Source: a virus
IMG/VR virus record: IMGVR_UViG_3300032288_003288
Reading direction: 5' to 3' (one strand)
DNA length: 64,000 nucleotides
The translations under genes and the position numbers were made by a program. The notes beneath the pieces were generated by a model. It saw only the letters and a program-made list of their open reading frames with translations, was not told the DNA's origin and ran no database searches. This document shows positions 28,331-43,548 of this stretch, piece by piece. Within the stretch, counting starts at the first letter, position 1, and each line of letters starts with the position of its first letter.

Positions 28331-28345
28331 ATGAATCCTTTAAAG

Positions 28346-28495
28346 GCGAAGCGGAAGGATTTGGTTATACCTTCAAGACCCAGTCAATTACCTATCGTAA
28401 TCTCGGTCAACGATCCGTTTGCCGGTTGAGCGGGAGACCAATCCCCGGATCTACTTTAGGTCCACTGACAAGGACCTTATTCAGTCACGCTTCTT
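28346..28495 (-). ncRNA. Structured RNA, possibly manA-motif-like
   Basis: Terminal GAAGCG/CGCTTC stem, GTGACTGAATA 5' segment, GGTATAACCAAATCC 3' segment, internal hairpins; family name from recollection only. Confidence 0.5.
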
Positions 28496-28518
28496 ACACC
28501 ACCCGTCGGCAGTGATCT

Positions 28519-36528: not shown

Positions 36529-36604
36529 TGGCATCCCTCCGAGGACTCGAACCTCGCTATCCGGTTTTGGAGACCGGTGCATCGCCCCTAAATGCTTGAG
36601 GGAC
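36529..36604 (-). tRNA. tRNA-Trp(CCA)
   Basis: CCGGT-CT-CCA-AA-ACCGG, CCA end. Confidence 0.92.
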
Positions 36605-36606
36605 AC

Positions 36607-36683
36607 TGGTCGGGGATGACGGATTCGAACCGCCGACCCTCTGCTCCCAAAGCAGATGCGCTACCAGGCTGCGCTAATCCCCG
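36607..36683 (-). tRNA. tRNA-Pro(TGG)
   Basis: TCTGC-TT-TGG-GA-GCAGA. Confidence 0.95.
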
Positions 36684-36687
36684 TATC

Positions 36688-37034
36688 TGGTGGGCCAGTG
36701 AGGTATCGATCCTCCCCCGCGAACAAAGAAATCTTCGAGACTAGCCATCGACGTACACGTGCCAGACGAGGCCAGATTCCATAAGCTCGGATCCGACATG
36801 AACTGCATTGGGATTAGGAATGCTGTATCCAGTTCCGTACACATTGAAGACAACACTACTTGAAGGATACGACGAATCTTGCTCGACCCACATGGTCAGG
36901 TTTCCGTACTGCTCTGCAATCTTCAGGACCTTATATCCTGCAGGCAGATCGATCGAGTTGTATCCGAGCATCAGCTCATACTTGTAGATAACACGCATAT
37001 CGATTACTCCGAGAGCCACTGGCTTTACCGACCC
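36688..37034 (-). ncRNA. tRNA-like acceptor stem and T-arm enclosing a protein-coding ORF (tmRNA-like architecture)
   Basis: 5' GGGTCGG (37034-37028) pairs with 3' CTGGCCC-A-CCA (36698-36688); T-arm GGAGG-ATCGATA-CCTCA. Confidence 0.65.
36741..36998 (-). CDS. 85-aa conserved small phage protein nested in the tRNA-like RNA
   Basis: MRVIYKYEL...LPAG...VYGTG...VWHVY; SD GGAG 8 nt upstream of the ATG. Confidence 0.8.
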   Translation of the reverse strand: MRVIYKYELMLGYNSIDLPAGYKVLKIAEQYGNLTMWVEQDSSYPSSSVVFNVYGTGYSIPNPNAVHVGSELMESGLVWHVYVDG

Positions 37035-37038
37035 AAAC

Positions 37039-37114
<76 letters not shown>

Positions 37115-40553: not shown

Positions 40554-40850
40554 TTAGCGGCTATACACGGTAAAATGAGTTGCATCGGCAAGCAGACAGT
40601 CCTGCATAGCGCGGATTCTGCAGCGCTTGTAGGTGTGGCCACCGACGCCGGTCATGGTGCGACCGATAGAAACGGCACGAGGACCGCGATAGCGCAGACG
40701 GACAGGAATGCCAGCAGCGCGATAGGCCGCGAGTACAGTCTCACGCATTTCGATCGGCACCCAATAGGCGCGGACGCTGTCATAAAAATCAGCGTTGGCG
40801 GGCACGGTGTAGGTCGATTCAATCTGTTGAACGGTCATAACAATCTCCAT
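40554..40850 (-). CDS. Early hypothetical protein
   Basis: RLRYRGPR; promoter 40862-40890. Confidence 0.65.
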   Translation of the reverse strand: MEIVMTVQQIESTYTVPANADFYDSVRAYWVPIEMRETVLAAYRAAGIPVRLRYRGPRAVSIGRTMTGVGGHTYKRCRIRAMQDCLLADATHFTVYSR

Positions 40851-40948
40851 TTGATAGGTCCACCTTACTATACTTTTCAGAATATGTACATGCTTAAAGC
40901 GCCTTTATAGAGGACCTTCTCAAGTTCTAGCACCGCCTCCCGGTCCTC

Positions 40949-41940
40949 TTACTCGCCCGCCTCGATGGCGCTGCGTATTGCGGCTGACGTGTCAGCGCAA
41001 CCAATGTCGAACCACTCCGCTTGCTCTTCGGTCCATCCAGCGGCGGGTTTCAACGGGTTTTCTTCGTAGCGTTTGACGAGCGCCACCACTGCCGCCCGTT
41101 CCGCCTCCCTGCCGCGCTGTTCGGCGTCTGCGCAGTTCACGCAATGGTCAACGAACTTCTGCATCGCTGCCTCCCAGCTTGGCGAGGAAGTCGCGGGCTA
41201 TTGGCGCGGCACTGTGAGGGCCAAGTGGCGGGGCCTTCGTTATCCGTTCACACGCGGCCTTCGCCTCCTCCACCAGCGCTTTCAGGCGCGCTACGTCCTC
41301 AAGTGCCTCAAGGATTGACGAGTAGCCCAACCGTTGCGCTTCCTCACGCATCATGCGTGCAGTCGTCGCATCAGGCTCAATCCTCGCATTCTCTGCCGCC
41401 ATGGCTGCGAGGGCGTCGGCGGCTTCAGCAAAATACGCAATGTCGGCTTTGTTGCGGAGGTATGGCAATCGCGCCCGCAGCCGCTCAATCAGCCCCTGCA
41501 CATCGGTGTTGTCGTCGCTCATAGTCCCTCCAGTGCCTTGCGGGCGATGTCCATAAGGACCGCCCCGTCTCTGTGCAGAGCCGTGGATTTTACACCCTCC
41601 AACGCCTCCCGCATGGTCTCGTTCTCTGCCCGCAGCCGCCGCAGTTCAGCGATCAGGGCGGGCGTCATCTCCCAGCACACAAGTTCGTCTCTGGCGCCCC
41701 ATGCGCTTTCGAGCGCGTCGAGGTCAGCCTTCATTGCTGCAACTCCCATGACCAGTAGAGGGGCCAGAATGCGGCGGCGGGGAATGCTTCAAAGGCGATT
41801 TGCGCACTTTCGCACTCTCTCCAGACAGTATTTCCGTAGTTTGGACAAACCTTCGGCTGCGATGCCGAATGCCCGAACGTGAACAGCGCCATTGCTACCC
41901 ACAGGCCCAGCGCGATGGCTTTCAGCCTAGCCGCGCTCAT
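40949..41940 (-). other. GC-rich island of four short coupled ORFs (40949-41164, 41148-41522, 41519-41749, 41731-41940)
   Basis: Visibly higher GC than the flanks; Ala/Arg/Glu-rich ORFs of temperate-phage type. Confidence 0.65.
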
Positions 41941-42016
41941 TGTCCGGCCTCCCGATCGATCCATGCGCGGATGGCATCGGCTGCTAAATATGTTTCGGTG
42001 TTGTCGTCATCCTTCA

Positions 42017-42526
42017 TTATGCATCCTCCATCTCGTCAAGGAGAACGCGAAGTTCTCCATCATCCAGAGCAAACTGCCCATTAATAAGCTCCCACGAAGC
42101 GGTGTAGTTCTCACGACCAGCGGCAGGAACCATGACGTAGCTTTCAAACTTCGTCTTGATCTCACGACGCATCGAGCCACCGTATTCACCTGTGTTGTCG
42201 ATCTCACGACGAGCAACCCAGGTGCCATCGGAATAGAACAGGCGGAACGGAGTCTCCCATTCCTCACCCTCAGGAGCATCGTCGCTGACGACCTCGGCCG
42301 AGAGGATGTATTCCCGGAAGGACTCGTTGTTCTCTTCGATGAGAGAGGTGAGGGTAGGAATACCATCACGCTCAATACGAGCCTTCTGCGAGGGGGTGAT
42401 GTTATCGACCACGAAGGTCGAACCACCCTTGAACTTCCAACGCTGCGGGCATGCACCCCGACCGTCCCAATCATGGGCGCCGTAGTTTTCGCAGATCTGA
42501 GTGTTGATAACGAGCTTCATAACCAA
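42017..42526 (-). CDS. Conserved hypothetical protein
   Basis: TQICENYGAHDWDGRGACPQRWKFKGG; promoter 42545-42573. Confidence 0.75.
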   Translation of the reverse strand: MVMKLVINTQICENYGAHDWDGRGACPQRWKFKGGSTFVVDNITPSQKARIERDGIPTLTSLIEENNESFREYILSAEVVSDDAPEGEEWETPFRLFYSDGTWVARREIDNTGEYGGSMRREIKTKFESYVMVPAAGRENYTASWELINGQFALDDGELRVLLDEMEDA

Positions 42527-42583
42527 TCTCCGTGTTTATAATTCAATCTACACCACTTTTGAAAATAAGTACATGCCCTATTT

Positions 42584-42805
42584 TCACCAATCTCGAGCGT
42601 TAAGTCTCTGCTCGTGGAGGAGATTTGCGGTCTCCTTGAAGTGACGGATAGCAGCAGCTCGAGTCTTGACATTGTACTCCGCCAGCTCCTTGGCCATTTC
42701 AGGCACCTCTCGGCACTCGACGATGAAGTCCCAGCCATCCTTGTTATAGTTCTCCAAGGCATGATCATAGACAGCCTGAGCATGAGTAAGGTACATATCC
42801 GACAT
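42584..42805 (-). CDS. Small hypothetical protein
   Basis: HALENYNKDGWDFIVEC. Confidence 0.65.
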   Translation of the reverse strand: MSDMYLTHAQAVYDHALENYNKDGWDFIVECREVPEMAKELAEYNVKTRAAAIRHFKETANLLHEQRLNARDW

Positions 42806-42806
42806 A

Positions 42807-43049
42807 TTAATATCCTTCCGTATGCATTTGAATGCCTTCGATGCGAGGTGAGATCGTCTTGGCAGAGTACTGCACTCCGTCGATCTCGAAGAAGTGTCGA
42901 CCACCGACCGGCCCAACCTTTTCCCAACGAAGCTTGAGAGCTTCACCTTCACGGAAAGGGCTAATGCCGTGAGTCCAAGGGCGACCAGTCCGGAGCTCAA
43001 AGGCTCCGCCGGAGAGGTTGGTGATCATGTTTGCTTCCTTCTTCATCAT
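42807..43049 (-). CDS. Early small hypothetical protein
   Basis: MMKKEANM leader; promoter 43056-43084. Confidence 0.65.
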   Translation of the reverse strand: MMKKEANMITNLSGGAFELRTGRPWTHGISPFREGEALKLRWEKVGPVGGRHFFEIDGVQYSAKTISPRIEGIQMHTEGY

Positions 43050-43143
43050 GGTCCTACCTTACCCTCTTTTTCAGAATAAGTACACAAAAAAACGCGCTCA
43101 GAACCAGCCAAGCGCGTTTTTATTTTGCTTTAGAATCAAAGAC

Positions 43144-43548
43144 TTATTTTTTGGCTCTGCCGATGTTGTACTTGGCTACGAGTTTCCAGTCGTCTTTTTC
43201 CTTAAAAGGAAGGATCTTGATCTGTGAAAGGGGTGACACAGGATCTGAGGCAGCCTCAGGATTTGCAATCTTGACCAGTGCCCAATCTTCAAGCAGCTTG
43301 GCAATGGTATTGCGTCTGCCTTTGTCCTCATCTGAGAAGTTTGTAGGCTTGCCGTCCAGAGCGAACAGCTCCTTAAAATGGACGATGGCGTATCTACCTT
43401 GCTTGTGCAGGATATGACAAGACTGATAGAGAATGTTCTCTTTCCTTGAAGCGACTCCGATTCTGGTCAGTGTTTCGCGTACTTTTAGGAAGTCGTCTTC
43501 GTGGCCGAGAGTGATCTCGACCCCGACCCCGTTAAAAATATCTGTCAT
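43144..43548 (-). CDS. regA: Translational repressor RegA
   Basis: DFLKVRETLTRIGVAS...LYQSCHILHKQG.Y.IVHFKE. Confidence 0.97.
   Translation of the reverse strand: MTDIFNGVGVEITLGHEDDFLKVRETLTRIGVASRKENILYQSCHILHKQGRYAIVHFKELFALDGKPTNFSDEDKGRRNTIAKLLEDWALVKIANPEAASDPVSPLSQIKILPFKEKDDWKLVAKYNIGRAKK

Follow-up and report, generated by a model that had tools for sequence, protein, structure and literature searches.

In tmRNA (SsrA), including the two-piece form of alphaproteobacteria, an acceptor stem, a T-arm and CCA surround a few hundred nucleotides that hold an open reading frame (ORF), and pre-tmRNA is processed by RNase P in the geometry that the element described here shares (PMC11143913; PMC11221534). 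The acceptor and T-arm hairpin is in itself a minimal and efficient substrate of bacterial RNase P, an enzyme that acts not only on pre-tmRNA but on some mRNAs as well (PMC11143913; PMC11221534). In tRNA punctuation, found in mitochondria and with ORFs in phage tRNA arrays, an ORF lies within a few nucleotides of tRNAs and would be freed by RNase P and 3' enzymes. Non-canonical (8/4) tRNAs for serine and histidine have been described from alpha-proteobacterial phage clusters, a description from which a tyrosine species is absent (Mukai et al. 2016; PMC5389517).

A further likeness is to the disrupted tRNA genes and pseudogenes of mosaic phages, where very short identities serve to join a gene segment, along with scraps of what used to flank it, to a target gene that is inactivated in a lineage-specific event. 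Scars of illegitimate (microhomology-mediated) recombination are well documented in mosaic phage genomes. Here we describe a locus in a 64-kb stretch of viral DNA (the window) that is very probably such a scar, namely a tRNA-Tyr(GUA) gene that no longer works and that holds a functioning protein gene between its two ends. It differs from other disrupted tRNA genes in that both tRNA ends are retained perfectly and a whole working gene stands exactly at the place of the anticodon arm, by which the locus comes to mimic the topology of tmRNA.

The tRNA-like element and its parent gene

The minus strand of the window carries a dense tRNA array, in which ARAGORN finds the order Ala, Lys(UUU), Lys(CUU), a gap, Pro, Trp and Thr. 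The gap is filled by a tRNA-like element of 347 nt with an enclosed ORF (37034-36688, minus strand). As a preliminary description of the locus had it, the slot lies at a distance of 4 nt from both tRNA-Lys and tRNA-Pro: GTTT separates the element from the CCA of tRNA-Lys(CUU) (37039..37114, minus strand), and GATA from tRNA-Pro(UGG) (36607..36683, minus strand), the latter called by both ARAGORN and Rfam. The 5' GGGTCGG faces the 3' CTGGCCC in five Watson-Crick and two G-U pairs; the 7-bp acceptor-like helix first described thus holds, or 8 bp if U8-A is counted as the eighth pair, and it is followed by discriminator A and an encoded CCA. The T-arm is likewise present as GAGG-ATCGATA-CCTC, but not in the five-pair version initially drawn, the fifth, outer pair being a G-A mismatch. 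The third acceptor pair is G3-C and not the G3:U70 of tmRNA, also in agreement with the first reading. ARAGORN and the Rfam tRNA and tmRNA models, which that description had suggested running, called neither a tRNA nor a tmRNA at the element even at E <= 10, with no match to the Rfam tRNA model. When the 347-nt RNA is folded in isolation, the centroid retains the terminal helix and the T hairpin, and the total folding energy is no better than that of shuffled sequences (z = 0.66).

The origin of these ends became apparent from a search of IMG/VR for the two acceptor strands placed 40-70 nt apart. It yielded 35 loci, 32 of which are an 85-nt gene with the anticodon loop CU-GUA-AA, that is, a tyrosine anticodon. 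Searches with the 3' and 5' halves contributed 10 more intact copies, for a total of 42 viral contigs, and among these viral contigs returned only intact tRNAs and no further hollowed copy. The intact tRNA-Tyr(GUA) loci (IMG/VR, L006-L057; L010:6300-6384, L038:2515-2599 and 40 others) lie in tRNA arrays and directly follow tRNA-Lys(CUU) in ten contigs, while the closest relative contig, which also holds the locus L002, has the order Lys(CUU)-Lys(UUU)-Tyr. The homologous slot of the relatives, a comparison that had been proposed from the outset, is therefore occupied by an intact 85-nt tRNA-Tyr after tRNA-Lys, with no cargo.

The cloverleaf of this parent gene has an 8-bp acceptor stem, a D stem of 5 bp with a loop of 5 nt, a 5-bp anticodon stem, a 3-bp variable hairpin, a 4-bp T stem with the T-loop AUCGAUA, and A73. 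In the alignment of intact copies pairing is kept in 100% of cells, and compensatory changes are seen at five pairs within the D and anticodon stems, compared with 0 in all slid controls. All 12 pairs of the acceptor and T stems are found in all copies (variants U-G/U-A and C-G/U-G) with no double-sided covariation, an invariance that is partly a product of the search, given that the copies were found by those very sequences. As judged by this sequence comparison, the cloverleaf of the parent tRNA-Tyr(GUA) is real, and the features of our element are not due to chance, since they match without a difference the ends of a genuine tRNA gene that is intact in 42 viral contigs.

None of the intact 85-nt genes was detected by ARAGORN. 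One intact copy submitted to Rfam had tRNA-Sec as its best match, at 32 bits and below threshold, and missed the tRNA threshold as well. The (8/4) tRNAs (PMC5389517) resemble the parent gene in that its D stem is long and closed by a short loop, it has a variable-arm hairpin and tRNA-Sec as best Rfam match, and it is set in phage tRNA clusters; the 8-bp acceptor and 4-bp T stem would be a further likeness. However, the reported ones are serine and histidine species, whereas the parent has a GUA (Tyr) anticodon, A73 and a short variable arm of 3 bp. With an 85-nt gene missed by ARAGORN in at least 42 viral contigs, tRNA-Tyr is under-annotated in this phage group, and this unannotated non-canonical family may be of more practical use than the chimera itself.

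Unusual tRNA genes are also found elsewhere in the closest relative. Right behind its tRNA-Tyr lies a 98-nt tRNA-like gene (L038:2604-2701), at which the Rfam tRNA model scores 38.8 bits and ARAGORN is blank; it seemingly has some 25 extra nt between the D and anticodon arms and has no encoded CCA. At L038:4636-4710 and L038:3680-3755 ARAGORN reports, respectively, a tRNA whose anticodon is CUA, of the amber-suppressor type and given the label Pyl, and a tRNA-His bearing the unusual anticodon AUG.

Segments, junctions and the enclosed gene

Comparison with intact copies resolves the element into segments of different origin. Its 5' end (37012..37034, minus strand) is a remnant of tRNA-Tyr(GUA) comprising tRNA nt 1-23, identical at 23/23 positions to L010, L013, L015, L035 and L040; it contains the 5' strand of the acceptor, the AAA linker and, from the D arm, the 5' stem strand, the loop and 2 nt of the 3' stem strand. 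The 3' end (36688..36723, minus strand) corresponds to tRNA nt 50-85, 36/36 identical to L007 and L010, with the variable-arm loop and the 3' strand of its stem, the T-arm, the acceptor 3' strand, the discriminator A and CCA. Aligned to the intact copy L010, the window shows a common prefix of 23 nt and a common suffix of 37 nt. What is absent is tRNA nt 24-48: 3 nt from the 3' strand of the D stem, the complete anticodon stem-loop, and 2 nt at the start of the variable stem. One of the readings offered in the preliminary description, a tRNA interrupted by a cargo gene, is thus right in that the ends are those of an intact tRNA-Tyr, but the event was a replacement and not an interruption, 25 nt including the anticodon arm being gone. 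A covariance model of intact tRNA-Tyr (R1) has its best match in the 64 kb at the 3' remnant (33.4 bits) and finds no second tRNA-Tyr in the window, although one may lie elsewhere in the genome.

In place of the lost part stands an insert of about 288 nt, made up of the tail of an upstream gene, the DUF7352 gene and an eight-codon head of an Nlig-Ia gene. The tail, CGGAGTAA (last codons and stop), together with the spacer TCGAT (36999..37011, minus strand), is identical to L001 2988-3000. It includes the Shine-Dalgarno GGAG of the cargo ORF (37010-37007), 8 nt before the ATG, and hence the Shine-Dalgarno region, like a part of the supposed D-like hairpin, is the leftover coding end of another gene. 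The intact 85-codon ORF with its GGAG noted at the outset is borne out at 36998-36741. On the far side, the first eight codons of the donor Nlig-Ia gene, MASLEDFF (36724..36748, minus strand), are 24/25 identical to L001, their ATG overlapping the DUF7352 stop. From this start a residual frame of 24 codons (36674..36748, minus strand) runs through the T-arm, the acceptor 3' strand, CCA and the spacer into tRNA-Pro; should coupled translation of the kind expected in the donor operon take place here, the 3' shell would be unwound by the passing ribosomes.

The left junction falls in an exact 9-nt microhomology, AGTGGCTCT (37012..37020, minus strand), in which tRNA nt 15-23 equal the 3' end of the donor upstream gene. 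Over the whole donor locus this is one of only four 9-mers shared with L001, and of two shared with L002, and it lies exactly at the junction. Further upstream of the microhomology, a likeness of GGGTCGGTAAA to the donor GGTTCCATC was considered and rejected as being at chance level (3/11 matches). The right junction has an identity of only 1-2 nt, with a similarity, GAGGATC(C)GAT, 9 nt further downstream. The Nlig-Ia and upstream-gene scraps are ~98% identical to L001 and the ORF 83%; the high identity of the scraps fits either a recent event or constraint on them.

The enclosed gene (36741..36998, minus strand; 85 aa and stop) encodes a protein that matches Pfam DUF7352 (PF24043) over its full length (residues 1-83; E 2.7e-20, 72.8 bits, cut-off 27) as well as PHROG 3848 (E 3.8e-16). 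Many unrelated phages have a free-standing gene of this family, and the copy in the element is the sole one in the 64-kb window. Relative to its closest relatives (dS ~0.65) the ORF has a dN/dS of 0.14-0.23; it is therefore under purifying selection and, by this codon-level comparison, a working protein gene. AlphaFold predicts a confident seven-strand all-beta fold (pLDDT 94). A Foldseek search of the PDB with this model gave nothing convincing (best E 0.38, TM <= 0.27), nor did a wide VIA-align search retrieve a convincing solved relative (best Z 3.2), and the literature is without any mention of DUF7352.

The donor operon in relatives

Six relatives carry DUF7352, with amino acid identities of 93% (L043), 86% (L044), 84% (L001), 81% (L046), 76% (L002) and 75% (L048). 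In all six the gene stands in a row of protein genes of the T4-type replication module (clamp, clamp loader, regA), and in the four loci with tRNAs in view (L001, L002, L044 and L048) it lies 0.6-1.3 kb upstream of the tRNA array. No tRNA pieces surround it in any of the six. The gene upstream is about 130 aa long, with a conserved ...GCCAAGTGGCTCTCG near its 3' end. In L001, L002 and L044 it ends ...GCCAAGTGGCTCTCGGAGTAA, with the stop context GAGTAA and an IAKWLSE terminus, and in L043 it carries ...GCCAAGTGGCTCTCG and then continues before its stop. Downstream, the ATG of an Nlig-Ia domain protein overlaps the DUF7352 stop in L001, L002 and L046 (ATGGCTAG...), the full L001 gene matching Pfam Nlig-Ia with E 2.5e-25. 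In the alignment the window is homologous to these loci over a stretch that starts at GTGGCTCTCGGAGTAATCGATATG, takes in the ORF and extends to ...GATTTCTTTG.

The window is syntenic with the relatives on either side of the donor site (46043-43150 and 40844-39950) and is without the 64aa-137aa-DUF7352-NligIa block at the syntenic site. A tblastn search of the window with the donor upstream and downstream genes found them absent except for the eight-codon scrap. About 2.3 kb of different small ORFs stand there instead (40844-43150, minus strand), a second mosaic replacement beside the tRNA array. A search of GenBank phage DNA gave generic tRNA matches only and no close relative.

The reverse direction of change, with the tRNA-embedded gene ancestral and the operon derived, was also considered. 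It is rejected, given that six relatives keep upstream coding sequence at the junction, three have a complete Nlig-Ia gene, and 42 tRNAs are intact.

Origin of the chimera and alternative readings

These observations lead us to propose the following scenario. An ancestral T4-type phage would have had the 85-nt non-canonical tRNA-Tyr, with its 8-bp acceptor and 4-bp T stem, directly after tRNA-Lys. A double crossover with DNA holding the tail of the upstream gene, DUF7352 and the head of Nlig-Ia, either from the phage's own operon some 4 kb upstream or from a co-infecting relative, would then have swapped tRNA nt 24-48 for the ~288 nt, the left crossover falling in the 9-nt microhomology and the right one at 1-2 nt. 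Decoding would have been lost with the anticodon arm and the broken D stem; the tRNA is dead, for splicing could not bring back an anticodon arm that the locus no longer contains. DUF7352 retains the Shine-Dalgarno and start codon of the donor. Neither a promoter-like nor a terminator-like site was seen between the array and the ORF, the closest promoter-like one on the same strand being at 37849-37821, and therefore the ORF is probably co-transcribed with the tRNAs and released on their processing. Its RNA would be freed from the precursor as the neighbouring tRNAs are processed, a cut by RNase P at the 5' end of tRNA-Pro setting its 3' end. Under this scenario the perfect tRNA ends would be the scar of the event and not an evolved cap. 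Patterns specific to the junctions have zero matches in metagenome contigs, and thus the chimera is so far known from one lineage only. If the scenario is correct, the chimera represents an unusually clean natural case of microhomology-mediated gene replacement in a T4-type phage, with donor, recipient and both junctions identifiable.

The preliminary description had put forward an evolved, possibly aminoacylatable tRNA-capped mRNA, and this deserves the closest consideration among the alternatives. The minihelix would be in use, RNase P would cut at G1, and the paired 5' end and the CCA would protect the messenger, giving a discrete, stabilised 347-nt mRNA that is perhaps bound by the CCA-adding enzyme or other tRNA-binding factors. 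The tRNA ends carry no mutation relative to the intact copies, the isolated 347-nt RNA has a pairing probability of 0.88 in the terminal helix and 0.6 in the T stem, and the acceptor and T-arm minihelix would by analogy be of the type cleaved by RNase P (PMC11143913; PMC11221534). Nevertheless, the arrangement exists in one lineage only, and six relatives have the same gene with no shell. With tRNA-Pro attached, the precursor fold gives the helix a probability of 0.00, compared with 0.13-0.96 for real tRNAs under the same model, and a local competitor helix is available between GGCUAGU, at the stop codon, and ACUGGCC. The residual coupled reading frame, moreover, traverses the 3' shell. Charging with an amino acid is unlikely, because TyrRS would no longer find its identity elements in the anticodon and AlaRS would lack the G3:U70 that it needs. 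We therefore consider it improbable, at about one chance in ten, that the element functions as a tRNA-capped mRNA. Where the shell does occur in relatives it is an ordinary-sized 85-nt tRNA-Tyr with no gene, never a cap around DUF7352; and a failure of the flanking pairing to be conserved around the gene was what the preliminary description itself had named as the mark of a tRNA disrupted by a gene.

Against reading the ends purely as a scar, it may be said that they have stayed 100% intact and that an acceptor/T-arm minihelix with ACCA can still fold from them, which makes a functional role possible. An accident may have been kept as useful, the minihelix leading RNase P and 3' processing enzymes to excise a 347-nt mRNA, a variant to which we likewise give a low probability. 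If true, this would be a recently born natural tRNA-capped mRNA of tmRNA-like topology, with the expression of DUF7352 stabilised or timed by its ends. A tRNA-capped and possibly chargeable mRNA would have constituted a new class of RNA; on the evidence the element comes down to a recombination scar. The scar shares with tRNA punctuation an ORF within a few nucleotides of tRNAs, from which it would be released, and differs from it in that the ORF also bears tRNA half-molecules at both of its own ends. Having recreated a tmRNA-like topology by accident, the chimera offers a natural substrate for studying the extent of tRNA structure that RNase P and other enzymes require in vivo.

It is very unlikely that the junctions are artefacts of a chimeric metagenome assembly, a reading favoured by there being no diverged second example of the chimera. 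An independent Logan assembly of ERR2848532, which may derive from the same sample, has an identical Ala-Lys-Lys-chimera-Pro order, base for base. Furthermore, the microhomologies (9 nt and 1-2 nt) are much shorter than the k-mers that assemblers use, and with no donor operon in the window there is no second copy to mis-join.

Still less credible, and in effect refuted, is a tmRNA-like molecule, or a decoy for SmpB or anticodon nucleases, as had also been raised. The topology alone speaks for it, a tRNA-like acceptor/T domain around ~290 nt with an ORF. In contrast to tmRNA, the element lacks G3:U70 (the pair is G3-C), a resume codon and pseudoknots, and it matches none of the models, with zero ARAGORN calls and zero Rfam matches at E <= 10, whereas the same models give 113 bits (RF04321 and RF01849) on the true two-piece tmRNA of L046, which is entirely different. 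Equipped with a Shine-Dalgarno and an ATG, the ORF encodes a DUF7352 protein under purifying selection, as befits a normal gene and not a tag ORF at a resume codon. As bait for an anticodon nuclease the element would need the anticodon loop that it does not have.

Group I introns occur in bacterial and phage tRNA genes, and the insert does sit between intact tRNA ends; an intron or mobile element spliced out to restore a functional tRNA-Tyr is nonetheless refuted by the sequence, for splicing cannot restore a tRNA from which nt 24-48, including the whole anticodon stem-loop, are missing, no Rfam intron family matches at the element, and the inserted DNA is that of an ordinary operon, scraps of the genes on either side included.

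No tmRNA was found in the 64-kb window. The tmRNA of L046 (L046:4286-4637, on a 96 kb contig from Logan SRR14271354) is of the two-piece alpha type, with the ARAGORN tag ANDNDVAFALAA, and lies immediately downstream of the DUF7352-NligIa pair. Among the other RNA genes of the window, the ARAGORN tRNA-Trp(CCA) at 36529-36604 (minus strand) is unusual in its D arm, pairs G1 with U72 and is the only one of the 15 window tRNAs missed by Rfam at the gathering threshold. A manA RNA (RF01745) at 28344-28514 (minus strand), downstream of tRNA-Asn, scores 55.3 bits against a gathering threshold of 55.2.
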